From the NCBI GenBank assembly GCA_963727525.1, contig CAVSGO010000007.1, positions 1,696,001-1,760,000 of the forward strand: 64,000 bases of DNA, written 5' to 3'. The stretch comes from an uncultured bacterium (lineage in GTDB: Bacteria; Krumholzibacteriota; Krumholzibacteriia; LZORAL124-64-63). The notes beneath the pieces are model-generated. The model searched no databases. It saw only the letters and a list, made by a program, of their open reading frames with translations, and had not been told where the DNA came from. A program made the position numbers and the translations under genes. Below are positions 14,953-43,154 of this stretch, one piece after another; the stretch's first letter is position 1, and each line of letters begins with the position of its first letter.

Positions 14953-17067
14953 TCAACGCCGCCGCCAGACCGTCATCTGCGCCAGCGTGTGCTGGTACTT
15001 GCGCGCCGTCTCACGGATCACGAAGGGCACGTCGCGCGGCTCGCCCATGCTCTCGAAGTGGGCCTCGAGCGCCGCGTGCAGACCCGCGAGCGTGGTCACG
15101 TTCTCGCCGTCCACCTTCTTGCCGCCGATCCAGCGGTCCCGGGGCGTGAACTCCTCGAGCCAGGTGTAGGGCGAGGTGAGCACCAGGAGGCCACCCGACA
15201 CGACCCGCTCGTGCAGGCCGGCGAGCCAGCGCAACGGATCGTAGAGACGGTCGACCAGGTTGGCAGCCAGGACGAGATCGAATCCCGTGAACTGCGGCTT
15301 CAGGTTGTGCGCATCGCCCTGCCAGAATTCCACGCGGTCGCGCATCGTCGCCAGGCCAAGGGCGTCGAGGTGCGTCTCGCGGTAGCTCATAAGCTCGCCC
15401 TCGTCGGAAATAGCGTATCGAGTGTAGCCCTTCTCCTGCAGCTCGTGGCCCACGCGGATGAACCGCGCCGAGAAATCGATGCCGATCACCCTGTCGAACG
15501 TGCGCGCCAGCTCGAAGGTGGCGCGGCCGGTGGCGCAACCCAGGTCGAGCGCGCGCCGCGTGGGCCGGCCCGCGACCAGTTCCGCGCAGATGCTCGCGAG
15601 GCGTTCGCCGAAGTTGGGCACGTCGAAGTATTTCGGTCCGTAGTGGAACTCGCAATACTGCGCGACGAGCGCGTCGGTCTCGTAGACATCTTCGCGCACC
15701 TTCACCGGCGCCTCGGTCTCGATGTATCGCAGTCCGGCGTGCTGGTAGAAATGACGGCGGAAGGCGTAGCGGCTGTCATGCGTGGCCTCGTTGCCGGTGG
15801 AGATCCAGGAGCCACCCTTGATGAGGTTATGCTTGGCATCGAAGGTGGGCGTCGAGAAGTCGTCGTATAGCGGGTGCACCGCGAAGCCTGGAAAGCCGGT
15901 GATCGGCGTCTCCGTGTGCTGCCAAACGTTGCCCACGACATCGCCGAAGCCGCCGTGCACGAACATGTCCACGGGACACGACGACGCGAAGTGCGCGAGA
16001 TTGAGGTTGCCGGGTTCGCTCTCCCAGTCGGGCTGGTCAGGGAGGCCGCTCACCGCGAGGAGTCGGTACCACTCCTCTTCCGTGGGCAAGCGCAGGGGCT
16101 TGCCGGTGGCGGCGGCCTTCCAGGCGCAGAACGCGTGGGCCTCGAGCTGATTCACCTCGACGGGCCAGTTCCAGGGCATAGCGATCTCCTGCACCATGCA
16201 GCGCAGGCGCCAGGTCCCCCGGTCGTCGGCCACCCAGAAGCGCGGGTGCTCGGCCTTCTCGTACTCGCGCCAGGCCCATCCCTCGTCGGTCCACCACCGC
16301 CGCTCGCCGTAGCCACCGGCCTCGATGAACGCGCGGTACTCGCCGTTGCTCACCAGGAAGCGCGCCGCGCGAAACGCGGGCACGTCCGCCGTGAGGTGGC
16401 CGTACTCGTTGTCCCAGCCATAGAGCGCGTGTTCGCGCGGTTTGCCCAGATGTACGCGGCCGCCGGTCACGTCGCTCAAGGAGTTCTCGGGCGCGGGGCC
16501 ACGCCGATCGCACACGGGCCAGTCGGGATGCGGGCGCACGAGGGCGAGCGGGAGGTGGCGGATGAGCACCGAGCTGGTTTCCAGATGGATGCGCTCGTGC
16601 TCGATACCCATGAGAATGACCCAGAACGGATCGGCCCAGCCGATCGGCAAAGACAGCGGCAGATCACTGATCGCCTGGTCGACCACGGCGCGCACGCGAC
16701 GCCGGTACGCCCACACGTCGGCGACCGGCGGCCAGTCGTATTGACCGCCATCGAGATCGTCCCAGCTCATCTCGTCCACACCGATGGCGAAGAGAGATTC
16801 GAGCCGCGGATCCACGCGCTCGGCGACCACCTTGGCCAGAAGCAGCTTGTTCATGAAGAAGACGGCCGTGTGCCCCAGGTAGAAGATGAGCGGATGCCGC
16901 AGGGGATCCGCGCGCCGGTAATAACCCTCGTCCGCCGCGAGTACCTCGAAGAGCTTCTCGTAGACGTCGCAGGTGTCGTGGAAGTACCGGCGAATCTCCT
17001 CGCGCTTCTCCTCGGCCGTACCGGTATCGAGCCGCGGCGAGCGAGCTGCGGTGGGCGTGAGCGCCAT
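14953..17067 (-). CDS. ovoA: 5-histidylcysteine sulfoxide synthase (ovothiol biosynthesis): DinB + FGE-like + methyltransferase
   Basis: LRHPLIFYLGHTA, GVDEMSWDDL, HERIHLETS (HX3HXE iron motif), HPLYDDFSTP, RRHFYQHAG, LDLGCATGR. Confidence 0.93.
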   Translation of the reverse strand: MALTPTAARSPRLDTGTAEEKREEIRRYFHDTCDVYEKLFEVLAADEGYYRRADPLRHPLIFYLGHTAVFFMNKLLLAKVVAERVDPRLESLFAIGVDEMSWDDLDGGQYDWPPVADVWAYRRRVRAVVDQAISDLPLSLPIGWADPFWVILMGIEHERIHLETSSVLIRHLPLALVRPHPDWPVCDRRGPAPENSLSDVTGGRVHLGKPREHALYGWDNEYGHLTADVPAFRAARFLVSNGEYRAFIEAGGYGERRWWTDEGWAWREYEKAEHPRFWVADDRGTWRLRCMVQEIAMPWNWPVEVNQLEAHAFCAWKAAATGKPLRLPTEEEWYRLLAVSGLPDQPDWESEPGNLNLAHFASSCPVDMFVHGGFGDVVGNVWQHTETPITGFPGFAVHPLYDDFSTPTFDAKHNLIKGGSWISTGNEATHDSRYAFRRHFYQHAGLRYIETEAPVKVREDVYETDALVAQYCEFHYGPKYFDVPNFGERLASICAELVAGRPTRRALDLGCATGRATFELARTFDRVIGIDFSARFIRVGHELQEKGYTRYAISDEGELMSYRETHLDALGLATMRDRVEFWQGDAHNLKPQFTGFDLVLAANLVDRLYDPLRWLAGLHERVVSGGLLVLTSPYTWLEEFTPRDRWIGGKKVDGENVTTLAGLHAALEAHFESMGEPRDVPFVIRETARKYQHTLAQMTVWRRR

Positions 17068-17217: not shown

Positions 17218-18594
<1,377 letters not shown>

Positions 18595-18755: not shown

Positions 18756-19532
18756 TCAGTGTCGCGAACTGTACGTGCGGAACACGACGTCCCACAGCGG
18801 CAGACTCACACCGTAATGAGAATCGCTGTCACGGTGATGGTGCGCCAGATGATAACGCTTGAGGTAGTGCGCGATGCCATGCGCGCAGCGCGCATGATGC
18901 CACGCGAAGTGTCCCAGGTCGTAGGCCAAGTAGCCCACGAGCAGACCTGCCATGGTCGCCAGGGCCGACGGCAATGGTATGGCAAGGTGGATGAGGACGA
19001 ACAGCACGAGGGCGATCGCGTATCCGGCGAGCGGCGGAAAGACCAGCCGCGAAGGATCCCAGGGGTCCTTGTGGTGAATCCCGTGCGCCAGGAAGTGGAG
19101 CTTCCTTTGCCACGATCCACGGGGACGGTGATGGAAGACGACGCGGTGCAGAAGATACTCGACGAGGGTCCACAGCAGGAAACCCGCCGCGAAGGCCCCG
19201 CCCATCTCGAACCAGCCCATCTCCCGCCAGCGTGCCATTCCGAGCATGAGCACCGTGGTCGGCACCCAGAGCGAGAGTACCAGCCGCCACGAAATGTGGG
19301 TGTTGGCCTCGAGCCACGGGTTCGCGAAGACGGGAAACGATCCCGGAAACGCGGCATCGGGCTGCACCACCGCCAGGCGCTCGCGTACGGAGGGCCTGAG
19401 GTTCACGTGCACCCAGTCCCAGTAGCGGTCGCCGAGCTCGTCGAGCTGGGGTAAGACGGGGCGGGTGTAGTCGACGCCGAACTCGTCGACGACATTCGCA
19501 GCCCCGGCTTGCCGTGGGGTTTCCTGGCTCAC
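18756..19532 (-). CDS. Fatty acid 2-hydroxylase (FA2H/Scs7-like; sterol desaturase superfamily)
   Basis: His boxes EYLLHRVVFH, HGIHHKDP, YDLGH, YHLAHH; RLVFPP; YGVS..LWD; GTG start after GGGAGG. Confidence 0.88.
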   Translation of the reverse strand: MSQETPRQAGAANVVDEFGVDYTRPVLPQLDELGDRYWDWVHVNLRPSVRERLAVVQPDAAFPGSFPVFANPWLEANTHISWRLVLSLWVPTTVLMLGMARWREMGWFEMGGAFAAGFLLWTLVEYLLHRVVFHHRPRGSWQRKLHFLAHGIHHKDPWDPSRLVFPPLAGYAIALVLFVLIHLAIPLPSALATMAGLLVGYLAYDLGHFAWHHARCAHGIAHYLKRYHLAHHHRDSDSHYGVSLPLWDVVFRTYSSRH

Positions 19533-19628
19533 CGCGGTTGCCTCCCTGGCAACACTGGACAATGGCGCCTTCCCGTGTAGGGTTGACATGGTACACACAT
19601 CGCCCCAAGGCGAAAGAGGGAACGCGCG

Positions 19629-20504
19629 GTGCTTTGTTTCTTCGCGAGCGACCTGCACGGCCGCGCCGGCCGGTATGCCCGGCTGTGGGAACGGGTGGGC
19701 GCGGAGAGGCCGCAGGCGATCTTCCTCGGCGGCGATCTCCTACCGATGGCATGGGATCACGGTTGGGTGCGCGACGGAATGACGGGTGCCTATATCGACG
19801 ACGTGCTCCTACCGGCCCTGGCCGCGCTCCGCGACGAGCTGGGACCCGCTTACCCGCGCATCTTCGCCATCCCCGGCAACGACGATCCGGCCTGCGAGGA
19901 ACCGTCCTTCGTGGCGGGCGACACGGGGGCGCTCTGGACCTACCTCCACGGCCGCCGTGCGTCGCTCGACGGCATCCCGGTTCTGGGTTACGCCTGCGTG
20001 CCCCCCACGCCCTTTTCCCTGAAAGACTGGGAGCGTTACGACGTGAGCCGCTACGTCGATCCCGGATGCGTATCTCCGGAGGAAGGGCGACGGTCGATGG
20101 AGGTCGACCTGCGGGAGGTCCGCCACGCCACCATCGCGTCCGATCTCGAGACCCTGGCGGGCGACGCCGATCTGACGGCCGCGGTGGCGCTCTTCCACAC
20201 GCCGCCCTACGACACCTGCCTCGACCGCGCCGCACTCGATGGCCGGCAGGTCGATCACGTGCCGCTCGATCCGCATGTGGGCAGCATCGCGGTGCGGCGC
20301 TGGATCGAGGCGCGCCAGCCGGCGGTGACGCTGCACGGCCACGTGCACGAAGCCGCACGCCTCACCGGCGAGTGGCGCGTGACGATCGGCCGCACGTGGT
20401 GTCTGGGAGCGGCACACGACGGCCCCGAGCTTGGCCTCGTGCGTTTCGATCCGCGGGATCCGGCCGCCGCCACCCGGGAACTTCTCGCACCCTTGCCGGA
20501 CTAG
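19629..20504 (+). CDS. Calcineurin-like metallophosphoesterase
   Basis: SDLHG, GGDL, PGNDD, HTPP, HVGS, LHGHVHE. Confidence 0.88.
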   Translation: MLCFFASDLHGRAGRYARLWERVGAERPQAIFLGGDLLPMAWDHGWVRDGMTGAYIDDVLLPALAALRDELGPAYPRIFAIPGNDDPACEEPSFVAGDTGALWTYLHGRRASLDGIPVLGYACVPPTPFSLKDWERYDVSRYVDPGCVSPEEGRRSMEVDLREVRHATIASDLETLAGDADLTAAVALFHTPPYDTCLDRAALDGRQVDHVPLDPHVGSIAVRRWIEARQPAVTLHGHVHEAARLTGEWRVTIGRTWCLGAAHDGPELGLVRFDPRDPAAATRELLAPLPD

Positions 20505-23500
20505 TCGGCGGCCCGCAGGGGCAGGGGCCGGGCCGCGTCGGTCACGGCATCGATCTTGGCGGCCCAGCTCGTGTGCTCGGCGATGTCGTCGTCGGTGACC
20601 AGGTGTACGTCGAGGAGCCCTTCGCTGCGATACCCCGTACGCAGGTAGTTCATCTCGGCCAGGCACAGGCTCCAGCCCTCGAGCCAGGCCAGCAGCTCGC
20701 GCCGCTGCCGCGTCTCGCCCTGGAAATGCACAAGCAGGTCGATGTCGCTGCCGGGGCCGGCCGTGGCGTTCTTCGTCGACCCGAAGACGTACAGTGCCTT
20801 CACTCCGAAATGCGAGGCATCCAGTTCCTCGGCTACCTTCTCGGCCATGCGCATGCGCCAGAACCAGTACTGGCTCGGTTGCTCCATGTCATTGTAGGCG
20901 CACAATTCCTGGGCGACGGTCGGATTCGTGTCCGGCTCGGCCAGGTAGGCCACCGCGCGCTCGACGTCGGCATTCAGCAGCACGCGCAGGATGCGCCCAT
21001 CGCTGTAGCTGGCCACGTCGATCACGCGGACGCAGTGCGCAACCGCCCCTGCCTCGGGCAACAGATCAAGCAGCAGATTGGGCGCGTCGCGGAAGAATGC
21101 CTCGTTGAAGTCGCAGCCTTCCTCGTCGGGGAACAGCGGCAAGTACCGGATGCGCGATTCCACGAGATCCTGGAAGAAGTGCGTGCCGAAGCTCAGGTCC
21201 GGCTTGTAGCTGCCCTGGCTGCGGGCGATCTCGATGAGCATGGCCGTGTTGCTGATGTCGGAGTAGGAGACGTTCACCCCCAGCTTGATGTCGCCGCGGC
21301 TGCCCCAGCGTCCGGGCCCCATGAGGATGAACTGGCGTTTGGGCAACAGCTCGTTGAGCCGACCGACGACGCGTCCCACGGCCGTCAGCGCGCCCCGATC
21401 CGGCAGCGACGCGTAGGCCTCGGGATCCACGTAGACGATGTGCGTGATGTCCGGAACGTGACCGTTCGACACGTGGAACTGCGTGCCGAAGACGAGCCGC
21501 GCCTTGTCGATCTCCTTGGGGATGGGCGACGGCGCCACGTCGGCGGCATAGCTCTGCGGACGGCATTGCAGAAGGTAGAAATCGGTGCCGTCGTGCGCGA
21601 ATTCCACGTCGACGGGTACCTTCATGTGCTCCTCGAGGATGCGCATCATGACGCCCACGTGGTGCAGGAACGGCGTATCACGCACGAGTCCATCGAAGGT
21701 CGTGACGAGGTCGTCCTTGTCGGGATCCATCAACAGCGGCACGAGCTTCTTGAGCATACCCCCCGAAAGCACCGAGAACACCTTGTCCACCAGCGGATAG
21801 TCATTCCCGCACTCGCAAAGCAGGTCGTGGATGCTCATCGTCTCGAACTCGTTCGATTCGAGATTGAGCACGTCGATCATGGTGGCGCTGTAGCGAACGA
21901 TCTCGTCGGCCCGCACATTGACGCGCAGATTCGGCTGACCGGGAACGAGCAGCGTGGGATAGTCCTCGCCGATGCGATCGACGGCGCGGGTGCCCAGGCC
22001 CGGAACGACGCGCACCAGACCGTCCTCGCGGCGAATGCGCGGCGACCAGCGGAACTCGTTGCGGCTGAAAGCCACGCCCGCGAAGGCCGGCAGGTAATAG
22101 CGGCCCACCGGCGTACCCACAACCTCCTGGATGAGCAACCCCATCTGCTCGTCGAATTCCAGCAGGCCGCGGTCACGACGATACTCGATGGCATCGGGCC
22201 CGAGCAGCGAGGCGTAGATCTCGGCGACCGCGTCCAGCAACGCGGCGAGGCGCTGCTCCTTGGATCCCTGGTTGGCCAGGAAGAGGCTCTTGTACTTGCC
22301 CGAGAACGCCGAACCGAGACGATCCTCGAGCAGGCTCGAGCTGCGCACGATCACGGGCGTCTCGCCGAGATCGTCGAGAGCCACCGAGAGCCCCTTCACG
22401 AGGTCGGGAGGAAACACCGAATTCTTGAAGAGCTGGACAATGTTCGGATACTCGCGCCGGATCGTGGAGATGTCCTTGAACTTCTGCTCCCACACGTCCT
22501 CGAGGTCGTTGTAGTCGAGGAAATCCATCACGGCGTCGGAGGCGACGTACCAGGTGCGCGGGATCTTGATCACCCCCGCCGTTTCGTGGTCGCCCTGCGG
22601 CCGCGAGAGGATCCAGTAGGCGAGCAGCAGCCCGGAGCCCTTGCCGCCAAGCTTGCCGTGCGACTCGGGCGGCATGACCACGCGGTCCAGCAGCTCCGCG
22701 AAGTCCGTGACCCGCACCACTTCCTTGGCGATCTTGGTGAAATCGAGTTGCTCGGTGAGGAAGCGCTGGCAGAGCATCACGCGCAGGCTCTTGAGCGAGC
22801 TGGGCGCCAGCCCGGCGCCGTCGCGCAGGATATGGCAGTAGCGGCGCAGGGCGTTGGCGATCTCCGGCAGGCTGCTGCGCGGATTGTTGAGGATCTTGAA
22901 GAAGAAGCTGGCCTTGTCTTCCTGGATCCAGCGCTGGATGCGCTGCATGATCTCGTTGTCGGTGAGGTGCTTCGACGCGAGGTCGAACGGGCGGTCGGAC
23001 ATGAGCACCGAATCGTCGATATCCAGACGCCGCAGCGGCATGTTCTCGCCCCGGTGCTCGCCGGTCGCCGCCTCGACGTTCTGCAGCAGCTCCTGCGCCT
23101 CGACCATGCCGGTCGAGCACAGGTAGTTCACCATCTTGCGCGCCACGCGTATGGCGAGGGCCTTGTCGGTTTCCCTCATGAGCTGGACGGCGATCTTCCA
23201 GCCGGCGCTCGGCGTGCCGCCGGCCTTGGTGCGTGCCGCTTCCCACTGACGCCGCATGTGCCGCACGCGATGGAACATGAGGTAGTGGCCGAGGCGGTCG
23301 GCGATGCTGTTGAGCAGGCGCAGTTCCTCGCGCAGGAAGGGGCCGACGCCCTCGGGCGGACGCGACTCGGTGTAACACACGTCGAGGGTGCCCACCTCCT
23401 CGTCCTGCAGCATGATGGTGGCCTCGAGATGCCAGGGCGTTTGCCGGTAACCCGCCGTGCGGTACTCGCGGCCCTCGATGGTCAGCTGCGCCTCGCAGAT

Positions 23501-23671
23501 CTCGATGTACTGCCAGCCGATGGGGATGGTGTCCACCACCTCCTGCAGGACGTCGTCCTGGGGTCGATCCGACTGGTTGAGCCGGTTCTCGATCTCGTAG
23601 ACGCAGTTGAGCTCCTTGGCGCGCTCGCGCAGTTCGGAGATCAGCGGACGCTGGCCATCATGACTCGCCAT
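20501..23671 (-). CDS. PEP-synthase/PPDK-type ATP-grasp protein with N-terminal GAF-like domain and C-terminal nucleotidyltransferase domain
   Basis: GKLGGKGSG, IVRSSSLLED, FSGKY, DVEFA, LLQCRP, GPGRWGS, SFGTHFF; C-terminal LYVFGS...GSDIDLLV...LDVHL. Confidence 0.88.
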   Translation of the reverse strand: MASHDGQRPLISELRERAKELNCVYEIENRLNQSDRPQDDVLQEVVDTIPIGWQYIEICEAQLTIEGREYRTAGYRQTPWHLEATIMLQDEEVGTLDVCYTESRPPEGVGPFLREELRLLNSIADRLGHYLMFHRVRHMRRQWEAARTKAGGTPSAGWKIAVQLMRETDKALAIRVARKMVNYLCSTGMVEAQELLQNVEAATGEHRGENMPLRRLDIDDSVLMSDRPFDLASKHLTDNEIMQRIQRWIQEDKASFFFKILNNPRSSLPEIANALRRYCHILRDGAGLAPSSLKSLRVMLCQRFLTEQLDFTKIAKEVVRVTDFAELLDRVVMPPESHGKLGGKGSGLLLAYWILSRPQGDHETAGVIKIPRTWYVASDAVMDFLDYNDLEDVWEQKFKDISTIRREYPNIVQLFKNSVFPPDLVKGLSVALDDLGETPVIVRSSSLLEDRLGSAFSGKYKSLFLANQGSKEQRLAALLDAVAEIYASLLGPDAIEYRRDRGLLEFDEQMGLLIQEVVGTPVGRYYLPAFAGVAFSRNEFRWSPRIRREDGLVRVVPGLGTRAVDRIGEDYPTLLVPGQPNLRVNVRADEIVRYSATMIDVLNLESNEFETMSIHDLLCECGNDYPLVDKVFSVLSGGMLKKLVPLLMDPDKDDLVTTFDGLVRDTPFLHHVGVMMRILEEHMKVPVDVEFAHDGTDFYLLQCRPQSYAADVAPSPIPKEIDKARLVFGTQFHVSNGHVPDITHIVYVDPEAYASLPDRGALTAVGRVVGRLNELLPKRQFILMGPGRWGSRGDIKLGVNVSYSDISNTAMLIEIARSQGSYKPDLSFGTHFFQDLVESRIRYLPLFPDEEGCDFNEAFFRDAPNLLLDLLPEAGAVAHCVRVIDVASYSDGRILRVLLNADVERAVAYLAEPDTNPTVAQELCAYNDMEQPSQYWFWRMRMAEKVAEELDASHFGVKALYVFGSTKNATAGPGSDIDLLVHFQGETRQRRELLAWLEGWSLCLAEMNYLRTGYRSEGLLDVHLVTDDDIAEHTSWAAKIDAVTDAARPLPLRAAD

Positions 23672-25406
23672 CTAGGATCACCACTCCCCGGCCGTCGCGG
23701 CCGTCGATCCGAACATCGAGCGGCCGCGAGAGCCGCACGTGCCGTATGAACTTCGATTCAAACTGAGCGGGCAGCACATCGAGGCGCTCCCAGTCGATCC
23801 GGTCTTCCGCCCGGTGCCACACCGATAGATACAACACGCGGAAGCTCATCAGGTTGTGAAAGAAGTGCGAACCCTGGCTGAAATCGGGTTCCATGTCCGG
23901 CAGCGTCGCCTCCACGATCACGCGCGCGCCGCCGATCTGCGGCCACACCACGGGCACGCCCAGCCAGGGATCGCTGCTGCCCCAGCGGCCGAAGCCGATG
24001 AGCATGTACGGCCGCTGGGCCTCCACGAGGCGCCGGTTGAAATGTTCCAGTTCGCTCGCGATGTGGGGCGTGAACCGGGCCTGGAACATCTCGGGCCTCA
24101 GGTACACGATATCGGTGATATCGTGGCGCTCGCCATTGCCCAGCACCCGGTGCGACGACAGTAGCGTGCCCGGACCCTTCATCTCGGACTCGTCCACAGT
24201 CACCTGCTCCTCGAGCACCCTTAGCGGTCGCATCTGCAGGAAACCGAAGCGTGCGGGGGTCGCGTCGAGGTCGGTGGCGGCGAACTCGAACTCCACCGGC
24301 CCTCCGGCCGCGTCCGCCCCCTGCTTCAGCAGGTCCTGTACGAGGTCGTTCAGGGGCAACGCGTCGTACTGCAGGATGGGCGCGAAATCGAGCACGCGCG
24401 GACCGGCCACGCCGGGCCCAGGGCGCAGGCGGCCCGACGATGCATCCAGGGTGGACACGAGATGGGTGAGCACGCCGTCGTCCTCGGCGGTCGCGAGGTC
24501 GGCCTCCACGAGGTATTCCGACTCGTGGATCGGGTCCGGCAGCGGCGGCACGCCCATATGCACGGCCCAGAAGCGCACCTGGCTGTTGCGCGATCGATCC
24601 TCCGGGCTGGCGAACGGCGGCGGCGCGGCCGGCCACGTGGGCGCGTAGCTCCAGGCCAGCCCCCCGTCGACGATCTGGCGACCGAGGCCCAGGGCCAGCG
24701 TCACCACGCCGTCGGTGGCCTCGGCGCGGCCGGTGGGATAAGCGTTCCACGAGCGCGCGACCCCGGCAATCTCGGGATAGAACCGCTCGCCATGACGCAA
24801 CCCCACCACCTCCTGCACGATCACCGCCATCTTCTCCTGCCCCACCTCCTTTCCGATCGTGCGCAGGTAGGCCCGCGCATCACGGAAGAAGGTGGACGCC
24901 CAGACGAACTTCACGGCCTGCACGAGAAGGAGGAAGCGCCGGTCGGCCTCTTGCTGGTTGTTCGGGATCATCTTTGTCGCATAGACGCCGGCGAATGGAT
25001 GATCGAGTGCGTCCTCGAGGAGGCTGGACGAGCGCACGGCAAGCGGCTGACGCACGTGCTCCACCAGCGACCTCAGGTCTCCCAGCCACGGCACCGGGAA
25101 CTGCGCTTGCTGGAACGCATGGGCGATGCGGTCATCGCGCAGATCATCCACCGGTAGGGAAAGCAGATCATTCTGGGTGATGAAGGTATCGAAGACATCG
25201 GTCGCCAGCACGACCAGGCGAGGCACGTCCACGGCGAATTGTGGATAGGCATCAGCGGGCAACGCCGTGAGCACGTTCCGGCGCACGAGATCGAGGCCCG
25301 CGGCTTTGCCGCCGATGGCCCCGTCGCCGATCCGAGTCATGGTGTCTTCACCGGTCAGAAATCGGCGACCGAAGCGCGGCAACTCCGTACCGGGGGCGCT
25401 GAGCAT
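23658..25406 (-). CDS. Stand-alone PEP-synthase/PPDK-type ATP-grasp protein
   Basis: IGGKAAG, AVRSSSLLED, FAGVY, EKMAVIVQ, FLQMRP, GRWGSSD, SQGSHFF; ATG after GGAGG; overlaps next gene by 14 nt. Confidence 0.88.
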   Translation of the reverse strand: MLSAPGTELPRFGRRFLTGEDTMTRIGDGAIGGKAAGLDLVRRNVLTALPADAYPQFAVDVPRLVVLATDVFDTFITQNDLLSLPVDDLRDDRIAHAFQQAQFPVPWLGDLRSLVEHVRQPLAVRSSSLLEDALDHPFAGVYATKMIPNNQQEADRRFLLLVQAVKFVWASTFFRDARAYLRTIGKEVGQEKMAVIVQEVVGLRHGERFYPEIAGVARSWNAYPTGRAEATDGVVTLALGLGRQIVDGGLAWSYAPTWPAAPPPFASPEDRSRNSQVRFWAVHMGVPPLPDPIHESEYLVEADLATAEDDGVLTHLVSTLDASSGRLRPGPGVAGPRVLDFAPILQYDALPLNDLVQDLLKQGADAAGGPVEFEFAATDLDATPARFGFLQMRPLRVLEEQVTVDESEMKGPGTLLSSHRVLGNGERHDITDIVYLRPEMFQARFTPHIASELEHFNRRLVEAQRPYMLIGFGRWGSSDPWLGVPVVWPQIGGARVIVEATLPDMEPDFSQGSHFFHNLMSFRVLYLSVWHRAEDRIDWERLDVLPAQFESKFIRHVRLSRPLDVRIDGRDGRGVVILDGES

Positions 25407-25494
25407 GGCGCACCTCCTCTGGCAAGCCGTCGGTCGTACCGTCTCGTGGTGGGCGAGGCCGGACCGCCATGGCGGTCCAGCCTCCCGTGGTCGT

Positions 25495-26784
25495 CTAGAC
25501 CCAGCCGCGCTCGCGGCAAGCGGTGGCCACCCTGTTGATGGCCAGCACGTACGCCGCATCGCGCATGGAGAGCTTGCGCCGACGAGCGAGTTCGCTCACC
25601 GACACGTAGGCCGCGGTCATCTTGAGGTCGAGTTTACCGAGAACCTCTTCCATTTCCCAGAAGTAGTTCATATTGCACTGGACCTGCTCGAAGTAGCTGC
25701 AGGTCACGCCACCGGCATTGGCGAGGAAGTCGGGAATCACGAAGACGCCGCGCTCGTCGAGCACCGCGTCGGCCTCGGGCGTGGTAGGACCGTTGGCGCC
25801 CTCGGCGACGATCTTCACCTTCGCCGAGATCCGGCTCACGTTGTCCCCGGTGATCTGGTTCTCCATCGCCGACGGGATGAGGATGTCGACGTCCTGAGCC
25901 AGCCAGTCGTCGCCCGGCAACACGTCGTAGCCCGCTTTCTTGGCCTTGGCCTTGTCGATGCCGCCGAAGCGATCGGTGATGCCGCGCAGTTGTTCGAGAT
26001 CGACGCCGCTTCCGCGCTTGAACGTATACGACGTCTGGTCTTCCTGATCCCAGCTCGAGACGCAGATCACGCGTCCGCCCATCTGCTGGTACAGTTCGAT
26101 CGCATACTGCGCCACGTTGCCGAAGCCCTGCACACTCGCGGTCGTGGCGGCGGGCTTCAGATCAAGATCCTTGAGGGCTTCGCGCAGGCAATAGACCACG
26201 CCATAACCGGTGGCCTGGGTGCGTCCCTTCGAGCCGCCGAGCCCCACGGGCTTGCCCGTGATTACGCCGGGGTACCGCCCGCCGTGGATGGCCTCGAACT
26301 CGTCGAGCATCCACAGCATGTGCTGCGGACTCGTCATGACGTCGGGCGCCGGCACGTCGGACACGGGTCCGATGTTCTTGGCGATCTGACGCACGAATCC
26401 GCGGCAGATGGCCTCCTGCTCGCGGGCGCTCAGGTTGTGCGGATCACAGATCACGCCACCCTTGCCGCCGCCGAGCGGGATGTCCGCCACGGCGCACTTC
26501 CACGTCATCCACATCGAGAGCGCGCGCACGGTGTCGACGGTTTCCTGCGGATGGAAACGGATGCCGCCCTTGCAGGGGCCGCGCGAGTCGTTGTGCTGGA
26601 TGCGGAAGCCGTGGAACACCTTCATCGTCCCGTCGTCCATGCGGACGGGGATGGTGAAATGGTACTCGCGCATGGGACTGCGCAGGAGGTCGCGCGTGGC
26701 CTCGTCCAGCCCGATCAGATCGGCGATCTTGTCGAACTGCGCCCGCGCCATCTCGAACGGATTGAAGGAACCCTTGGCGGACAT
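25495..26784 (-). CDS. Second glutamate dehydrogenase (Glu/Leu/Phe/Val dehydrogenase, GdhB/archaeal-like subfamily)
   Basis: RGPCKGGIRFHP, MTWKCA, GGGKGG, DVPAPD, ITGKP, QGFGNV, EGANGP, ANAGGVTCSYFE. Confidence 0.93.
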   Translation of the reverse strand: MSAKGSFNPFEMARAQFDKIADLIGLDEATRDLLRSPMREYHFTIPVRMDDGTMKVFHGFRIQHNDSRGPCKGGIRFHPQETVDTVRALSMWMTWKCAVADIPLGGGKGGVICDPHNLSAREQEAICRGFVRQIAKNIGPVSDVPAPDVMTSPQHMLWMLDEFEAIHGGRYPGVITGKPVGLGGSKGRTQATGYGVVYCLREALKDLDLKPAATTASVQGFGNVAQYAIELYQQMGGRVICVSSWDQEDQTSYTFKRGSGVDLEQLRGITDRFGGIDKAKAKKAGYDVLPGDDWLAQDVDILIPSAMENQITGDNVSRISAKVKIVAEGANGPTTPEADAVLDERGVFVIPDFLANAGGVTCSYFEQVQCNMNYFWEMEEVLGKLDLKMTAAYVSVSELARRRKLSMRDAAYVLAINRVATACRERGWV

Positions 26785-26881
26785 GGAAGCCCCTTTCGTT
26801 GGGAAATTTAGGGCAAACAACGACGCCGCCGCGAGGGAAGTCAAGCCCAGGTTGTGATTCCTTGAACGGGCCGCTCGCCGA

Positions 26882-29872
26882 CTAGCGGGAGGCACCGTCC
26901 GTGGCCGGTCGCCGCACCACGCCGCGGCGTTGCCGACCGTCGATCACCACCTCCAGCGGAACCGCCAGGTGCACGTGCCGCAGGAACGTGCCCTCCCACG
27001 CGGCGGGCTGGGCGTCGAGCCAGTCCCAGTCGCAGGTGGCGGGCGGAGCGCCATGATTCACCGTGAGATAGCCCACCTGGAAGCTCGTGAGATTCTGGAA
27101 GAAGTGCGTACCCTCGCTGGGCGTGACGCGAAAGTCGGGCAGATCCGTCTCCACGATCACGCGGGCGCCGCTGATCTGCTCCCAGCGTACCGGAATGCCT
27201 AGCCAGCGATCGGCCGTACCCCAGCGGCCGGGACCGAGCAGGAGGTAGGGCGTCTCTGTCTCGAGCAGGCGCCGGTTGGCCTCGGCCACCTCGGCGGCGA
27301 TGGCCACCGTGTGCGCGCGCTCGAATCGCTGCCGCGGCACATAGACGATATCGCATAGATCCTCGTGCCGACCATTGCCGAGCGCCACCTCGCTGGCCAC
27401 CACCACGCGCGCCTCGTCGAGCGCCTCGCGCGCGAGGGACACGTTACCGGCCTGCAACGCCAGCGGCCGGATCTGCAGGAACCCGAACTGGTGCGGCACC
27501 AGGGACGGATTGGGACTGAGCGTCACCGCCCACTCCAGCTCCACCTGTGCGCTCATGCAGTTACGCCCGAGTTCCAGCAGGAATTCGAGGATCTCGGCGA
27601 GCGGGAAGATGCCGGATTTCAGCACGTGCGCGAAACTCACCACGCGGGTGCCCGGCCGCGTGATGCCGTCGGTGATGGCGCGGTTCTCGGCGGAATACGT
27701 GGAGCCCACCGCCGCAAGCGTCCCGTGTCGCTCGGCGTCCGCCAGGTCGAGCACGGTAAGGTCGTAGTCCTCACGCGCCTGGGGCGAGATGTCCGCATGC
27801 GAGAGATCGATGGCATGGAACTCGCGCTGGCTGCCCTTGAGCCAGTCGTCGATGGTGCCGAACTGTTGCAGGTGCTGCGGCTGGCGTGGATTGAAGCGCA
27901 GCACGTTGCCACCTTCCACGACCACCCTGCCCAGGCCCAGCGCCGCGCACACCACGCCATCGTGGGGATCGGCCCCCGGTTGCGGGTAGAAGTCGGTGGA
28001 GTGGGCCACGCCGGCGAAGTCGGGATAGAAGACGCGCTCGTGCCGACGACCGACCACCTGCTGGATGATCACGGCCATCTTCTCCTCTTCCGCCCGGCTG
28101 CCCGTGGCGGCGAGGTACGCCTTGGCGCCCCGGGTGAACACGGAGGCATAGACGAGCTTGATGGCGTCCACGAGCTGCCCCAGCCGCACGGCGAGTCGCG
28201 GATGATTGTTGGGCAGCATGTAGGTGGAGTACACCCCCGCGAACGGCTGGAACTGGCTATCCTCGAGCAGACTCGACGAGCGCACGGCGATCGGGTAGCG
28301 CACCTCGCGCAGGAAGGCCTCGAGATCGCCGATCACCGCGGAGGGGAGCGCGGCCCCGAGCAACGCCTGGACCACGAGAGCGTCGTCGACGTCGCCGTAC
28401 ACGCGATCCCGCAGACCAGGTGTATCGAGGACCTGATCGAACACGTCGGTGGCCAGCACGGCCGTGGGCGGCACCCGCAGATCGACCTCGGGGAACCGGT
28501 CCATCACGCCGTAGCGATGCAGCACCGCGTTCATGAACGCGAGCCCGCGCGCCTTGCCGCCCAGCGATCCCCCGCCGATGCGCACGAAGTCGTTGCGCAC
28601 GTCGAATTGCCGCCGCGAAAAATCCGCGACGATCCCGCGCTGGGTTTCGGTGCGGAAGCGGTCGAAGCTCTCGCGCAAGTAGCGGCGCAGCGCCCCGACG
28701 TCCGCGAACTCCCCTACCTTGCGCGGCCGGATGAGGGCCGCCAGCGCGAACTCGGTGCGCGCGCGCAGCCACGTGGAGAACTGATCGTTGCCGGCGTGAT
28801 GGATGATCGACGCGTCGGGCACCTGGTCGAGCTTCTCGACCATCTCGCGCAGATCCCGCGCGCGGCCCACCTCCGTGCCGTCGGGCAGGCGGAAGACGAA
28901 ATCGCCGAACCCGAAGTTGTCGGCCATGAAGACGCGCAGCTCGTGCAGCAGGGCGCGCGACCGCTTGTTGATAAAACCGGCGCCGATCGCCGCGGCCGAG
29001 GCGCGTAGCCCCTCGTTGGTCGACTGCAGCACCACCGGGAGATGCCGATCCACCGCCTTCACCTTGCCGATGAAGTCGAGCCCCGCCGTCTCCGGCACCG
29101 CGCCGTCCCACGGGAACTGACCGTCGCTGATCACGCCGAGCAGGTAACCCTGGTACTGGCGAAAGTAGCTCCAGGCTTCCTCAAAGGTGGTCGCGAGGAT
29201 GATCTTGGGACGCGCGCGCATCCGCAGGAGGCGGTGGCTGAGATTGATACCCTCGGCCATCAGCTCCTGCGTCTGGTGCACCACCTCGGTGTAGAGCATC
29301 GGCAGGTAGAGCGAGAAGAAGCGCACGGAGTCCTCGATGAGCAGGATCACGCGCACTTCGCCATAACGAGTGTCGTATGGCAGGTTCTTCTGGTCCTCCC
29401 AGCCCTTGATCATCGCCAAAAGCAGCCGCACGTCGCCCGACCAGAGGAACACGCGATCGATGGCGCCCTCGTGGCTCTGCCGCTCCACCTGCTGCAACTC
29501 GCGGGGATTCAGCACCAGCGTGTACACCGGCACGTCCGGATGGGTGGCCTTGATCCGCGCGGCGAGATCGCCGGCCTCGAGGTCGCCCAGGCGGGACATG
29601 GTGATGACGAGGTCGAAGCGCCGGGTCGCCAGCAGGTCGAGGGCCTCGCGGCCGCTGTTCGCGCGGGCGATACGGGGCGCGAAGCTCAGGTTCAGCTCGC
29701 GGTACTCGCTAAGGAGCAGCTCCGTGAGCCGTCCGCCCTCCTCCAGCGTGAAGGCGTCGTACATCGACGCCACCAGGAGCACTTCCTGCACCCGGAAGGG
29801 CATGAGATGGCTGAAGCCGCCGAACCTGTCCTCGGTCCCGGCCTGCAACTGGTGCCAGAAGGAGTCTTTCAT
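26882..29872 (-). CDS. PEP-synthase/PPDK-type ATP-grasp protein with two N-terminal receiver-like domains
   Basis: REC-like segments (FDLVITM; VILLIEDS...GVISD...VVLQST...FINK), GGKARG, AVRSSSLLED, FAGVY, FLQIRP, GPGRWG, SEGTHFF. Confidence 0.88.
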   Translation of the reverse strand: MKDSFWHQLQAGTEDRFGGFSHLMPFRVQEVLLVASMYDAFTLEEGGRLTELLLSEYRELNLSFAPRIARANSGREALDLLATRRFDLVITMSRLGDLEAGDLAARIKATHPDVPVYTLVLNPRELQQVERQSHEGAIDRVFLWSGDVRLLLAMIKGWEDQKNLPYDTRYGEVRVILLIEDSVRFFSLYLPMLYTEVVHQTQELMAEGINLSHRLLRMRARPKIILATTFEEAWSYFRQYQGYLLGVISDGQFPWDGAVPETAGLDFIGKVKAVDRHLPVVLQSTNEGLRASAAAIGAGFINKRSRALLHELRVFMADNFGFGDFVFRLPDGTEVGRARDLREMVEKLDQVPDASIIHHAGNDQFSTWLRARTEFALAALIRPRKVGEFADVGALRRYLRESFDRFRTETQRGIVADFSRRQFDVRNDFVRIGGGSLGGKARGLAFMNAVLHRYGVMDRFPEVDLRVPPTAVLATDVFDQVLDTPGLRDRVYGDVDDALVVQALLGAALPSAVIGDLEAFLREVRYPIAVRSSSLLEDSQFQPFAGVYSTYMLPNNHPRLAVRLGQLVDAIKLVYASVFTRGAKAYLAATGSRAEEEKMAVIIQQVVGRRHERVFYPDFAGVAHSTDFYPQPGADPHDGVVCAALGLGRVVVEGGNVLRFNPRQPQHLQQFGTIDDWLKGSQREFHAIDLSHADISPQAREDYDLTVLDLADAERHGTLAAVGSTYSAENRAITDGITRPGTRVVSFAHVLKSGIFPLAEILEFLLELGRNCMSAQVELEWAVTLSPNPSLVPHQFGFLQIRPLALQAGNVSLAREALDEARVVVASEVALGNGRHEDLCDIVYVPRQRFERAHTVAIAAEVAEANRRLLETETPYLLLGPGRWGTADRWLGIPVRWEQISGARVIVETDLPDFRVTPSEGTHFFQNLTSFQVGYLTVNHGAPPATCDWDWLDAQPAAWEGTFLRHVHLAVPLEVVIDGRQRRGVVRRPATDGASR

Positions 29873-30090
29873 GGGACGCAACTCTACTGCCCCGGCGCCG
29901 TGAAGGCCACAGGAAAGGGGTCGCGCCCGGCCTGTCACAGCGCTTCTCCGGGCGCGACTCGTGTCATGGTCAGTGCCCTTGCACGACAAAGACGACAATC
30001 GAGGTTATCTTGACGATGCTCGCAACAACCGTTAGCCTGCCCACACCACCGACCGTCACCATCGCGACGCATTTATCGAGGTCGATATTC

Positions 30091-30666
30091 ATGGCCGCCG
30101 GCGATGCCCCCGCAACACAGGGCACCCTGGACTGGGATGCCACTCGGCGGCAGCTCGCCGCGGTCCTCGGTCGGCTCGCGGGCTCCGTGAACGCGCCCCA
30201 GCTCGACGACCTCACCCAGGAGGCCTGTATCCGCCTGCTTCGCGCCATGCGGCGCGGCGGCGTGCGCGAGCCCGAGGGGATGCTGGTCACCGTCGCCCGC
30301 CGCACCTGGATCGACCACTTGCGACGCCGGCGGCGACAACGCCAGCGCTTCGTGGCCATGCCCGAGCACCTCGACCCTCCGGCCGACACGGACGAACCCC
30401 TGCGGGCCGATCTCGGCGACCTCGCCGAACGCCTGGAGCTGGTCGTGCAGGAGGTCTTCGTCCGCGAGGGCGCCGACGCCTGCCTCACGCTCGCCCACGC
30501 CTATTTCGCCGCCCAGGACTGGAAGCAGGTCGCCGCCGCCGCCGGCGACGGATACGACGCCGTGCGCAAGCGCTGGTCGCGATGCCTGGTTCTCGTGCGC
30601 CGAGCCCTCGCGGCCGATCCCGATTTTGCCGACCTGATCGATCGCCCGAGAGGAAGCGCGCGATGA
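30091..30666 (+). CDS. ECF-type RNA polymerase sigma factor (divergent)
   Basis: Region 2-like DDLTQEACIRL...VARRTWIDHLRR; region 4-like WKQVAAAAG...AVRKRWSR; ATGA overlap with the anti-sigma gene; start uncertain. Confidence 0.7.
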   Translation: MAAGDAPATQGTLDWDATRRQLAAVLGRLAGSVNAPQLDDLTQEACIRLLRAMRRGGVREPEGMLVTVARRTWIDHLRRRRRQRQRFVAMPEHLDPPADTDEPLRADLGDLAERLELVVQEVFVREGADACLTLAHAYFAAQDWKQVAAAAGDGYDAVRKRWSRCLVLVRRALAADPDFADLIDRPRGSAR

Positions 30667-31487
30667 CTCACGACACGCATGTCACCTCCGACCGCGCCTT
30701 CGCCGCCCTGGCCACCGGATTGCTCGATGGTGACGATGAAGACGGTCTGCGCCGCCACCTCGCCACCTGCGAGCCCTGCCGCAACCGTTGGGATGCGTTC
30801 GTCGCGGATCGCGAGGAAAGCGACGACGCGCGCCACCTACCGGCCGCCATGATCGCACGCTGGGATCGCGCACGCGCCGAGCTGCGCGGCCTCGAGCGCG
30901 AGAGCGTGCGCCAGCATCTCGCGCGTTGCCGCGCTTGCCAGGAGGATCTGCGTGTCGCGGGGTTCTCGCCCGACCTAGCCGGCGCCGCTCCCGCACCTCG
31001 CGCCACCGTGATCCGCACGCACCCCTGGCGCTGGTTCGCCGGCGGCGCGGCGGCGGCCGCGGCCATGGCGGCGGTGCTGGTCGCACTCCTCCTGCCGCCA
31101 CACCCGCCACGGGACATTGGGGGCGTCGTGCCCTGGGTCGCGCCCGCTCAGCTACGCGGGGCGTCCGTGGCCACGGTGACCGTCGCCCCCGGAACGCCCA
31201 CCCTCACCCTCCTGCTCGGCACACCCACCGACTTCGACCCGACCCAGCCCGCCATCGTGGACGTGCGTTCCCCCGGCGGTACCCACGTGCTGCACGCCGC
31301 GATTCCGGCCGCGGACCTGCAGCGCTCCACCCTCGCGATCATGCTGACCATGACGCCGGCCATCACGGCCGGCGTCTATGACGTCACGCTGAGCCAGACG
31401 CAGGGAACACCGCAGATCACCTCGTTCGAGGTCATTTGGGCCGCGAAGAATGGTGATCGCACATCGAGCCCCGGTCTCACCCGCTAG
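30663..31487 (+). CDS. Zinc-binding anti-sigma factor (two HxxxCxxC motifs, one TM helix, extracytoplasmic domain)
   Basis: RHLATCEPC and QHLARCRAC; TM segment AAAAAAMAAVLVALLL. Confidence 0.78.
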   Translation: MTHDTHVTSDRAFAALATGLLDGDDEDGLRRHLATCEPCRNRWDAFVADREESDDARHLPAAMIARWDRARAELRGLERESVRQHLARCRACQEDLRVAGFSPDLAGAAPAPRATVIRTHPWRWFAGGAAAAAAMAAVLVALLLPPHPPRDIGGVVPWVAPAQLRGASVATVTVAPGTPTLTLLLGTPTDFDPTQPAIVDVRSPGGTHVLHAAIPAADLQRSTLAIMLTMTPAITAGVYDVTLSQTQGTPQITSFEVIWAAKNGDRTSSPGLTR

Positions 31488-40945: not shown

Positions 40946-42168
40946 GTGCCAAGAAGAATGTTGACGAGGCTTCGCACCGGGATCTCGCCCGCCAGGCCCG
41001 ACTTTCTCACTACGCGGCGTACGTCAGCTTGTGCCTCCGGTTCACCTTCAATGGCCGCGTCTCGACCCGTCGCCAGTAGTAGTCATCCCACAACGGCGGC
41101 AACTCGATATGCGACACGAACAGCCGCCGCGACAACACCTCCTCCTCGGTCAAGGGCTTCGTGGCGATCCCGATCTGCATCGCCGGCGTGCTCCAGCACC
41201 GCTTCTCCCGACGCAACTTGATCGTGTTGCGCCACACCAGGAAGATCGCCAGCCGGTAGATCGAATGCTGGCGTCGCTTTCCGAACGCGATCGTCTCCCG
41301 CGTGTGGTCTTTCAGACAATGCCGCAGCAACATGTCCAGCAAGTTGACCTCGAACAACGGGTTGCGACTCGTCCGCGGCTCACGGGAGTCGATCGTCTCG
41401 TGGATCACCTTGCAATACCGTAGCTTCGCGATCGCGTAGGGATAGGTCTTGTGCTTGTCGCTCCAGATGTGGGCCTCGGTGGCGCCGTCGAGCGAGACCG
41501 AGAGCACCTCGAGCAGCGCCCGCATCAACGACCTGGGGTCCGGCCGGCCATAGTTTTGTTCAAAGAGGGACCGTTTCCATTTCTGCTCGTCGGTCATCGC
41601 CCCGCTGCGTCGCCGCTCGGCCTCGGCGAAGTGGATGATGAAGCTGGAGGGGCGATCGACGGCCGTGACGATCTCGTAGGGGAAGTACTGGGAGTGCTCG
41701 AAGGTGACGAGCCCGTCAATGGCGATGTCCACGAAGGGTGACGCCTGGGACACCAGGTGTCGATGGAAGAGGATGCAGTGTCGGCCGAGGCGGGCGAGGA
41801 GGTTGTCGACGGTCGTCGGCGAGGTGTCGAGGAGCCTGGCGATCTGGCGATTGGCGGCGCCAGAGACGGCGTGCTTGTGGACCTTGGGCAGGAGATCGGC
41901 GCGTTTGAGCCAGTATGTGGTGCGGAAGGTCTGGTCTGAGCAGGTCCTGCCACAGGCCAGGCAGAGGTAGCGCTGGACGGTGTAGGGCGGGGATTTTCGG
42001 GAGAAGGTGCCGAAGAGCGCGAAGGGCCAGGGTTGCGGCTGAGGCTTGTGGTATTTGCAGTTAGGGTTGGGGCAGTGGGGAGGAAGCGAGGGGCATGAAG
42101 TGAGGGTTTTGGTGTTCATGAGGACGGGTCCAGGCAAGCGCTGGACCGGTCAACATTCTTCGTGGCAC
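40946..42168. mobile_element. Insertion sequence (IS1/IS1595-like), 1223 bp, 20-bp terminal inverted repeats
   Basis: Left GTGCCAAGAAGAATGTTGAC (40946-40965); right GTCAACATTCTTCGTGGCAC (42149-42168); 19/20 match; encloses a transposase-like ORF; no clear TSD. Confidence 0.85.
41010..42119 (-). CDS. Transposase (Zn ribbon + HTH + DD(E/N) core)
   Basis: CPNPNC...QRYLCLAC, RQIARLLDTS.TTV, IDGLVTFEH, WSDKHKTY, TPAMQIGI; alternative TTG start at 42137. Confidence 0.8.
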   Translation of the reverse strand: MNTKTLTSCPSLPPHCPNPNCKYHKPQPQPWPFALFGTFSRKSPPYTVQRYLCLACGRTCSDQTFRTTYWLKRADLLPKVHKHAVSGAANRQIARLLDTSPTTVDNLLARLGRHCILFHRHLVSQASPFVDIAIDGLVTFEHSQYFPYEIVTAVDRPSSFIIHFAEAERRRSGAMTDEQKWKRSLFEQNYGRPDPRSLMRALLEVLSVSLDGATEAHIWSDKHKTYPYAIAKLRYCKVIHETIDSREPRTSRNPLFEVNLLDMLLRHCLKDHTRETIAFGKRRQHSIYRLAIFLVWRNTIKLRREKRCWSTPAMQIGIATKPLTEEEVLSRRLFVSHIELPPLWDDYYWRRVETRPLKVNRRHKLTYAA

Positions 42169-42169
42169 G

Positions 42170-43144
42170 TCACTTGAGTTGCGGCGGCAGCGCAAACCGG
42201 AAGCCCGCGGCGAGACCGTCACGCCAGTTGGTCCAGTTGTGGCCGGCCGGGCGCTCGATGTATTCCACCGGGAATTCTCGCTCCGTCAAAGCCTGGGCCA
42301 GGTTGCGATTGGGGCCGTGGAGCCATTCCAGGGTGCCGGTGCTGAGGTGGAAGCGGAGGGGGCGCCAGGATTCGGTCAGGACGCGGTTGCGCCAGAACTC
42401 TTGGCCGGTGAAGGGGGTGTCGAGTTGCTGGTCGGGGTAGAAGAGGAAGGCGCCGGACTGGGCAACCACGGTGGCAAACTTGAGGGGGTGTTGCCAGGCG
42501 AGGTTGGCGCTGCAGAGACCTCCGAGGCTGGCGCCCCAGGCTGTGCGTGCGTCGGTGGTGGGGGCTGCGGTTTCGATGGCGGGGATGGCTTCGTCGATCA
42601 CGAAGCGAAGGTAGTCGGGGTTGAAGAAGTATTCCTGGGTGCGGTTGGCCGGGGTGAGGAAGATGAGGCGGGCGGGCGCCACCAGATTGGCAGCGAGGAG
42701 GGCTTCGTAGAGCTGGGGGGCTTTGCCCCAGCCGAAGTAGGCCTTGCCGTCCTGGAACCATACCTGGGGCAGGGCATCGGTGCCGGTACCAGGCGGGGTA
42801 TAGATGAGGATATGTCTAGTATCGCCCAGGATCTTGGAAGGGAGGCGCAGCCTCGTGACTTTGCCGTGAAGGGTGTCCTTGGCGGCGAGCCAGAAGGGGT
42901 TCTGTTGGTACTTCGGGCCGGCTAGCCAGCGGGCGTAGTCCCACCAGGGGTTGTGCGGGGGGTTGGGGTTGGTGGGGTCGGGTCGTTTCCGCCCTTCATC
43001 GTCGAGCCAGGCGTATTCGAAGTAGGCATCGTCGGGGAGGTCGAAGGGGGTGACGTCGGCCACTGGTCGTGGCGACTTCATCCAGTCGTCGAGGTCGCTG
43101 ATAAGATGTGTGGCCCAGGGGGGTGGCCTCAGATTGATGCGCAT
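42170..43144 (-). CDS. Esterase (enterochelin esterase-like alpha/beta hydrolase)
   Basis: IYTPPG, FQDG, GASLGG, AQSG, GHNWTNWR. Confidence 0.85.
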   Translation of the reverse strand: MRINLRPPPWATHLISDLDDWMKSPRPVADVTPFDLPDDAYFEYAWLDDEGRKRPDPTNPNPPHNPWWDYARWLAGPKYQQNPFWLAAKDTLHGKVTRLRLPSKILGDTRHILIYTPPGTGTDALPQVWFQDGKAYFGWGKAPQLYEALLAANLVAPARLIFLTPANRTQEYFFNPDYLRFVIDEAIPAIETAAPTTDARTAWGASLGGLCSANLAWQHPLKFATVVAQSGAFLFYPDQQLDTPFTGQEFWRNRVLTESWRPLRFHLSTGTLEWLHGPNRNLAQALTEREFPVEYIERPAGHNWTNWRDGLAAGFRFALPPQLK

Positions 43145-43154
43145 GGGTCTCTCG

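Follow-up and report, generated by a model that had tools for sequence, protein, structure and literature searches.

The window analysed here is a 64,000-nucleotide stretch of DNA from an uncultured Krumholzibacteriota bacterium (GenBank assembly GCA_963727525.1, contig CAVSGO010000007.1, positions 1,696,001 to 1,760,000). On its minus strand lie four tightly packed genes, in the order C, glutamate dehydrogenase (GDH), B and A, with overlaps of a few bases between the reading frames of C and the GDH and between those of B and A. The proteins A, B and C all exceed the gathering score of the ATP-grasp family PPDK_N (PF01326), named after pyruvate phosphate dikinase (PPDK), and directly after this domain each carries a tail of about 170 residues with a conserved histidine, whose likely role is the subject of this work. 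The genes and their domains are as follows.

26882-29998, minus strand: gene C, encoding a receiver region, a PPDK_N ATP-grasp and the tail
25495-26787 (frame to 26895), minus strand: GDH gene between C and B, with ELFV_dehydrog and ELFV_dehydrog_N matches
23658-25406, minus strand: gene B, encoding an ATP-grasp and the tail; 582-residue protein, P0001
20501-23671, minus strand: gene A, encoding an N-terminal region, an ATP-grasp, the tail and a pol-beta-type nucleotidyltransferase
28589-29998, minus strand: N-terminal region of C, a degenerate receiver-like module and then a receiver (Response_reg match at residues 109-180)
27452-28567, minus strand: PPDK_N-type ATP-grasp of C, residues 478-849 (PF01326, E 9.3e-35)
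26885-27406, minus strand: histidine-bearing tail domain of C, residues 865-1038 (alignments; domain profile E 2.6e-81)
24183-25319, minus strand: PPDK_N-type ATP-grasp of B, frame residues 81-459 (PF01326, E 3e-32)
23661-24167, minus strand: histidine-bearing tail domain of B, frame residues 465-633 (motifs, AlphaFold2 model, fold matches)
22667-23671, minus strand: N-terminal region of A, about 335 residues (no family match)
21515-22654, minus strand: PPDK_N-type ATP-grasp of A, residues 340-719 (PF01326, E 6.4e-55)
20957-21511, minus strand: histidine-bearing tail domain of A, residues 721-905 (alignments; domain profile E 2.5e-41)
20504-20956, minus strand: pol-beta-type minimal nucleotidyltransferase at the end of A (NTP_transf_2 E 3e-8, Polbeta E 5e-6), bearing a G-S...D-I-D motif

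Residues of B are numbered from a reading frame that begins at base 25559; translation most likely starts at Met52 of this frame (base 25406), and frame residues 465-633 correspond to residues 414-582 of P0001. The true start of C is likely the Met at residue 43. For the N-terminal region of A, no Pfam family matched at E <= 0.01.

An initial annotation had pointed to two motifs shared by the three tails, G[PF]GRWG and S-x-G-[ST]-H-F-F, and both are indeed present in every one of them, at the following positions on the minus strand.

A: SFGTHFF 21173-21193, GPGRWG 21302-21319, His831 codon 21179-21181
B: SQGSHFF 23859-23879, GFGRWG 23979-23996, His565 codon 23865-23867
C: SEGTHFF 27098-27118, GPGRWG 27218-27235, His965 codon 27104-27106

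The tails can be aligned over their entire length. Against the window's own 4.66-Mb genome, a tail profile returned B (E 4.5e-83), C (2.6e-81), A (2.5e-41) and a fourth paralog (1.4e-30), with a sole further match at E 0.15. Because the profile finds four paralogs at strong E-values and otherwise only this last match, the resemblance reflects homology, and chance recurrence of the motifs was rejected. The fourth paralog, on another contig (G000:C5:143300-144856; L004:808-3231), is A-like with the tail sequence VSFGSHFFQD, and gave no nucleotidyltransferase match. Among 141 representative domains, R525, G534, E550 and G563 (B numbering) are each found in 141/141, and S561 and H565 each in 139/141; the additional landmarks LG, I[SG] and [IV]E that had been described earlier are likewise conserved, as seen for G534 and E550. 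Across 77 genome loci the histidine is kept in 133 of 133 tail copies (40 A-type, 38 B-type and 55 C-type, a tally in which two A-like, one unclear and three C-like copies were assigned to the nearest type), so that its conservation in homologs is borne out. The strict pattern occurs in 131 of the 133, the other two comprising one G-to-A exchange and one match that begins inside the motif, and the family motif reads S-x-G-[ST]-H-F-F-x-N. The family is large: 3,787 of 4,186 candidate proteins from a word-indexed search match at E <= 0.001, an exhaustive search yielded at least 1,489 family clusters at 50% identity, and at least 630 stretches of species-representative genomes encode a relative (630 of 631 among the pattern matches listed). 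Among the matches listed, the record titles of relatives cover many phyla, with Lutibacter and Gillisia species among the carriers.

The ATP-grasp domains preceding the tails appear intact. The motifs GGK, VRSSSLLED, E-x-E-F/W and LQxRP are common to A, B and C, are invariant or at least 90% conserved among 124 aligned relatives, and match by eye GGKGANL, SVRSGA, DVEFT and LQTR of the genome's own PPDK. In PPDK, the ligands of the nucleotide and its phosphates are provided by GGK, the Arg of VRS, E-x-E and Q-x-R. For rifampin phosphotransferase (RPH), Lys22, Arg117 and Thr136 are named as the equivalents (PMC4844700). With the profile match and the binding motifs both retained, A, B and C belong to PPDK_N. 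The NCBIfam models for PPDK and phosphoenolpyruvate (PEP) synthase match the ATP-grasp alone and fall far below their cut-offs, and scans with Pfam and NCBIfam found in A, B and C no third dikinase (PEP/pyruvate) domain and no swivel-domain match for the tails. The Pfam scan also gave no HATPase_c or HisKA/DHp match in the three proteins; a GHKL kinase was rejected, in agreement with the earlier view that they are unrelated to that class.

We obtained an AlphaFold2 model of the isolated B tail with a mean pLDDT of 94.1. Foldseek returned nothing at E <= 0.001 for this isolated tail, and for the full B model its matches were ATP-grasp relatives only, with no aligned ranges reported. An exhaustive VIA-align search of the tail model against 48,161 chains gave the following leading matches and scores.

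First: DRTGG domain, 6.8
Second: C-terminal extra domain of Bacillus stearothermophilus pyruvate kinase (477-582), 6.6
Third: PPDK phosphoryl-carrier domain, 6.3
Fourth: maize PPDK 394-511, 6.0
Fifth: RPH 763-867, 5.8
Sixth: Enzyme I, 5.7

The extra domain of the pyruvate kinase we take to be of the PEP-utiliser type. Nearly all other matches presumably belong to superfamilies of SCOP fold c.8, the swivelling beta/beta/alpha fold; they comprise aconitase domain 4, LeuD, chaperonin apical domains, PA domains and RraA-like proteins, together with cyclase, kynurenine formamidase, LD-carboxypeptidase C-domains, the CPS small-subunit N-domain and the fumarase beta subunit. On PPDK 392-509 the alignment spans 107 residues (model 1-166) from end to end. 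The predicted tail thus has a swivelling beta/beta/alpha fold that can be superposed on the solved phosphohistidine domains of PPDK, RPH and Enzyme I, rather than a fold unrelated to them. Such likeness might simply reflect a common alpha/beta arrangement, with the tail being a new domain of a dimerisation, regulatory or DRTGG-like kind whose histidine binds a ligand or a metal ion. We regard this as quite improbable, as the VIA-align list is dominated by one fold and is no random mix, the alignment runs across the whole of the canonical domains, and the superposition of both domains on PEP synthase and on one state of PPDK, described below, is independent of the single-domain search.

The position of the histidine in the model is consistent with a carrier site. 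It is model residue 101 and opens the third helix (100-108), between strands 81-87 (..RVIVEA) and 112-116. The elements of the model follow one another as a hairpin, a helix, a strand (YMLIGF), a short helix, a strand, the His-helix, a strand and a beta-meander ending in DGRDGRGVV (DG-x-x-G-x-V). The central domain of PPDK consists of a ..PG..G.. hairpin, a helix, the VILVR strand, the SPEDI helix, the GILT strand, the GGMTSH-AAVVAR helix, the PCVAG strand and a meander ending in NGTNGNVI, an order that we take to equal that of the tail. The catalytic His of PPDK sits in a helix (PMC5371819). A collinear alignment of the whole domain accommodates the position of the tail histidine, although profile alignments disagree on the register. 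Within the tail, model confidence is lowest in the blocks that contain the His loop, whose pLDDT is 76 and 72 when the whole protein is modelled and 79 and 85 for the tail alone; this would be expected of a site predicted to be exposed and mobile.

The placement of the tail relative to the ATP-grasp provides a second line of structural evidence, which we treat as a two-domain comparison separate from the single-domain search and with a control of its own. The full-length B model superposes across both domains on PEP synthase. It does so as well on the PPDK structures 1dik, 2dik, 1kbl, 1ggo and 1jde, with 342-354 residues aligned (model ~7-580 on chain ~3-511), whereas 5jvl_A, 5jvj_A, 2r82, 1vbg, 1vbh, 5jvn and 5lu4_A were aligned over the ATP-grasp alone. 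The five structures of the former set represent conformational state I of PPDK (PMC5371819). Since the two-domain fit to PPDK is confined to state I, the tail is modelled in the position that the phosphohistidine domain takes up when turned towards the ATP site. Of the RPH entries, 5HV2 and 5HV3 align with the B model through residues 866-867; these two structures (RPH G527Y) may show the swivel docked on the ATP-grasp.

A number of observations weigh against regarding the tail as a carrier domain. Those from sequence are the most extensive. At E <= 0.1 none of the three proteins matched the classical swivel family PF00391, and even at E <= 10 it hit none of 28 tail sequences. A tail profile run against PDB sequences retrieved no PEP-utilising enzyme, its best match (E 0.29) being an unrelated longin domain, and in the genome itself it misses the swivel domains of one ordinary PPDK and one PtsI-like protein, the only PF00391 matches there. 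We then compared alignments directly, using 31 canonical swivel domains (from the same genome and 30 relatives) and, with 11 more divergent ones added, 42. The hhalign P-values were 0.057 and 0.1, and across nine subfamily pairs the best was 0.016 (probability 2.8%), none of them significant. The 42-domain alignment displaces the register by one beta-alpha unit, and only one of the nine pairs sets His on His; in two others the motif falls on the 'sPSDT' loop that comes before. With stringency set very low, the 31-domain alignment does lay strand on strand and His on His. The canonical GG-x-T is not present in the tail; GGMTSHAAVV of the PPDK and GGATSHVAIL of the PtsI-like protein share with it only [ST]-H and two hydrophobic residues, so that the comparison with GGxT[SC]HAA made in the initial annotation holds as a loose likeness in these positions and fails for the GG-x-T. 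A phmmer search of whole B against the PDB found no match, and ESM Atlas no usable one. Judged by sequence, then, there is no support for swivel homology and no reliable register. The structural evidence has its own weak points. The two-domain superpositions are loose (root-mean-square deviation 4.2-5.2 Å), AlphaFold may have learned the two-domain arrangement from these same structures, and the equivalence of the histidines in the model is derived from aligned ranges and the order of secondary structure rather than from a residue-level superposition. Finally, two B-type representatives, P0140 (Arg) and P0153 (Tyr), are without the His, their motifs degraded to GSRFFQY and GSYFFYQ, which may reflect errors of sequencing or partner copies that are inactive; and R525, E550, S561, D530 and N569 are additional invariant polar residues that a mere carrier does not obviously need. 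Because the profile and motif tests fail, we do not assign the tail to PF00391, and what we claim is that it works like a swivel domain. The earlier proposal of a divergent swivel domain is accordingly upheld by predicted fold and domain placement and finds no support from any sequence method.

The additional invariant residues bear on a further alternative. From the ends of the strands, the invariant Arg, Glu and Ser would lie near two loops flanking the His, and they may form a phosphate pocket within the tail. The tail could instead share the swivelling fold and yet be a fixed catalytic or ligand-binding domain, in which Arg, Glu, Ser and His form a site of their own and the ATP-grasp functions as ligase or kinase for a substrate that the tail binds, comparable with cyclase/kynurenine formamidase, RraA or the LD-carboxypeptidase C-domain. 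The metal motif of the cyclase/kynurenine formamidase group is HxGTHxDxPxH; the tail has Ser at the first His and Phe at the Asp, and a metal site of this type was rejected for lack of its ligands. The order of ATP-grasp and tail, moreover, is that of PEP synthase and PPDK, the tail is modelled in the ATP-facing state of PPDK, and to our knowledge no characterised PPDK_N enzyme, RPH and VadK included, works without a swivel His, supplied either in cis or in trans. We therefore consider a fixed domain unlikely.

Taken together, we think it fairly likely that the tail is a very divergent phosphohistidine carrier domain of the dikinase type, or else a domain equivalent to the swivel in structure and function. 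This reading is the most economical one, because an ATP-grasp of this family needs a partner, and the tail suits that part in its predicted fold, its place in the chain, the docking position predicted for it and the invariant His that opens the corresponding helix. It builds directly on the conservation of the motifs and the His, the intact ATP-grasp motifs, the predicted fold and placement, the gene order and, as described below, fusions of B with A. By analogy, A, B and C probably phosphorylate themselves on this His; the family to which they belong is unstudied and very widespread. Overall, the initial interpretation is partly supported.

The closest precedent is VadK (Rv1127c) of Mycobacterium tuberculosis. 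As reported, VadK combines a PPDK_N domain with a His domain, has no third domain and, given ATP and Mg, phosphorylates its own His422 (PMC13400623). That an ATP-grasp with a His domain can act in this way supports the carrier reading. The same report describes VadK as a PPDK-derived truncated dikinase whose His domain is recognisable by overlay on PPDK, and proposes a regulatory rather than metabolic role, with methylcitrate-cycle enzymes as partners (PMC13400623). A, B and C share the architecture of a PPDK_N ATP-grasp and one His domain without a PEP/pyruvate domain, and autophosphorylation of a His with ATP and Mg is the behaviour predicted for them. They differ from VadK as described there in that the tail lacks a PF00391 match, shows S-x-G-[ST]-H-F-F and G-x-G-R-W-G in place of GG-x-T-S-H, and has about 50 extra residues, and in that the genes sit in a GDH neighbourhood and encode fusions to receivers, a nucleotidyltransferase and other N-terminal regions. 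Descent from PPDK together with a classical His domain, as proposed for VadK, was not found, the classical domain being absent by sequence.

Other PPDK_N enzymes are more distant. RPH-Lm (PDB 5HV1, 5HV3, 5FBS) has a rifampin-binding domain of about 450 residues between ATP-grasp and swivel and a swivel domain that matches the classical family, neither of which applies to A, B and C (PMC4844700). In contrast to PPDK and PEP synthase (PDB 1KBL, 1DIK, 2OLS), the three proteins have no Pfam match to the PEP/pyruvate TIM-barrel and a His domain that is not detectable by sequence, and the genome encodes an ordinary PPDK besides them, as well as a PtsI-like protein. Phenylphosphate synthase is a split dikinase, with the His domain and substrate site on a partner subunit and small aromatic substrates. 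Hydroxyphenylethanone kinase HpeHI (PDB 9GOJ) is likewise reported to carry His domain and substrate site on a partner subunit and to act on small aromatics (PMC12167813). Compared with split dikinases so described, B and A each have their own ATP-grasp and their own His tail.

Drawing on PPDK, PEP synthase, RPH and VadK, we envision the following mechanism. The ATP-grasp would bind Mg-ATP; the tail would dock on it, and the invariant His (H831 in A, H565 in B, H965 in C) would attack the beta-phosphate, giving AMP and a pyrophospho-His that would then be trimmed to phospho-His and phosphate. The tail would subsequently swing off on a linker of about 18 residues and pass the phosphoryl group to a target, or itself act as a phospho-switch. 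In this scheme, the phosphorylation at the invariant His, the release of AMP, the swivelling movement and the target are all inferred. Since A, B and C contain neither a PEP/pyruvate nor a drug-binding third domain, the target would lie in trans. Judged by the conserved gene order, it would most likely be connected with GDH. B and A would form a working pair, and the receivers of C, the N-terminal region of A and the nucleotidyltransferase of A would serve as input or additional output modules.

The gene order was evaluated at the 77 related loci, with the assessable subsets as denominators.

GDH gene directly upstream of the B-type gene, same strand: 25/27
A-type gene directly downstream of B: 34/35
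A-type gene with nucleotidyltransferase: 31/35
Metallophosphoesterase adjoining the A-type gene: 20/29
C-type gene within about 3 kb of a GDH gene: 20/52

The conserved module is GDH-B-A(-phosphoesterase), with the metallophosphoesterase as a frequent fourth member. In the window, the corresponding gene is convergent with A.

19629-20504, plus strand: calcineurin-like metallophosphoesterase (PF00149, E 8.5e-7)

Fusions of B and A, namely P0121, P0122 and P0123 (1,523-1,654 residues), contain two PPDK_N domains and two His tails with the B-type half first, P0122 having a nucleotidyltransferase as well; these fusions argue that B and A act together. A complex prediction for B (15-582) with the neighbouring GDH scored 0.00 twice, controls not being folded, and speaks neither for nor against an interaction. 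Apart from general dikinase papers, our literature search, which had most subscription journals outside its reach, found no publication on the family or the GDH module.

The surroundings and domain make-up also bear on whether the phospho-His might feed receiver domains, those of C or of other proteins, which would make the system an alternative two-component histidine kinase. Among 29 C-type representatives and C itself (30 rows), the first receiver is degenerate and the second keeps its acidic and Lys positions, the latter as expected of an input domain; the conserved acidic pocket and Lys would suit such a transfer, and passage from His to Asp is chemically ordinary. In C, however, the receiver stands at the N-terminus, where input domains are usually found; the same tail occurs in A and B, which have no receiver; and the conserved neighbour is GDH and not a response regulator. 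We hold this route to be very improbable, and the earlier suggestion of a transfer to receiver domains finds no support.

A broader scenario, which we put forward only tentatively and consider doubtful as a whole, is that a very large and unstudied class of sensor-gated, dikinase-type His autokinases, each with a cryptic swivel His domain and its own Arg/Glu pocket, marks GDH or a partner of it with a phosphate, a nucleotide or both in many phyla, the receiver-, sensor- and nucleotidyltransferase-fused members writing the mark together and the metallophosphoesterase erasing it. Were this so, many bacterial phyla would possess a post-translational switch where carbon and nitrogen metabolism meet. 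If the carrier function of the tail is correct, thousands of proteins recorded as 'PEP/pyruvate-binding domain-containing' or 'hypothetical' would gain a testable chemistry, ATP-driven self-phosphorylation on one named histidine; dikinase-derived regulatory histidine kinases, represented by VadK, would extend from one actinobacterial lineage to many phyla; and the conserved GDH gene module would acquire a mechanistic handle. The tail would also exemplify a domain overlooked by sequence profiles and recovered by predicted structure and domain placement.

Several further features of C-type proteins and of the window were recorded. Between the receiver region and the ATP-grasp, the C-type proteins P0150, P0226, P0149 and P0255 show weak matches to DUF5752 (PF19027), of which only that of P0150 exceeds the cut-off (26.3 vs 23 bits); our literature search found no publication on this domain. 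At L078-L083, L087, L097 and L101 (Bacteroidales and relatives), two C-type genes stand in tandem, preceded by a short gene that resembles part of the N-terminal region of A and often followed by a GDH gene. The window itself holds another GDH gene.

17218-18579, minus strand: second GDH gene

This gene and the one at 25495-26895, both on the minus strand, are diverged and less than 9 kb apart; in other genomes, relatives of the former are found beside C-type genes and those of the latter upstream of B-type genes. Between the second GDH gene and the metallophosphoesterase, 18756-19658 (minus strand) encodes a fatty acid hydroxylase family protein. The 704 residues encoded at 14953-17067 (minus strand) combine DinB_2, FGE-sulfatase and methyltransferase domains, an architecture that we take to be that of OvoA, an ovothiol-type sulfoxide synthase. 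Divergent from gene C, 30010-31487 (plus strand) encodes an ECF-type sigma factor (Sigma70_r2) and then a zf-HC2 anti-sigma-like protein. Farther along, positions 42001-44000 show a GC skew of +0.21, compared with about +/-0.05 elsewhere in the window, and a slightly lower GC content.

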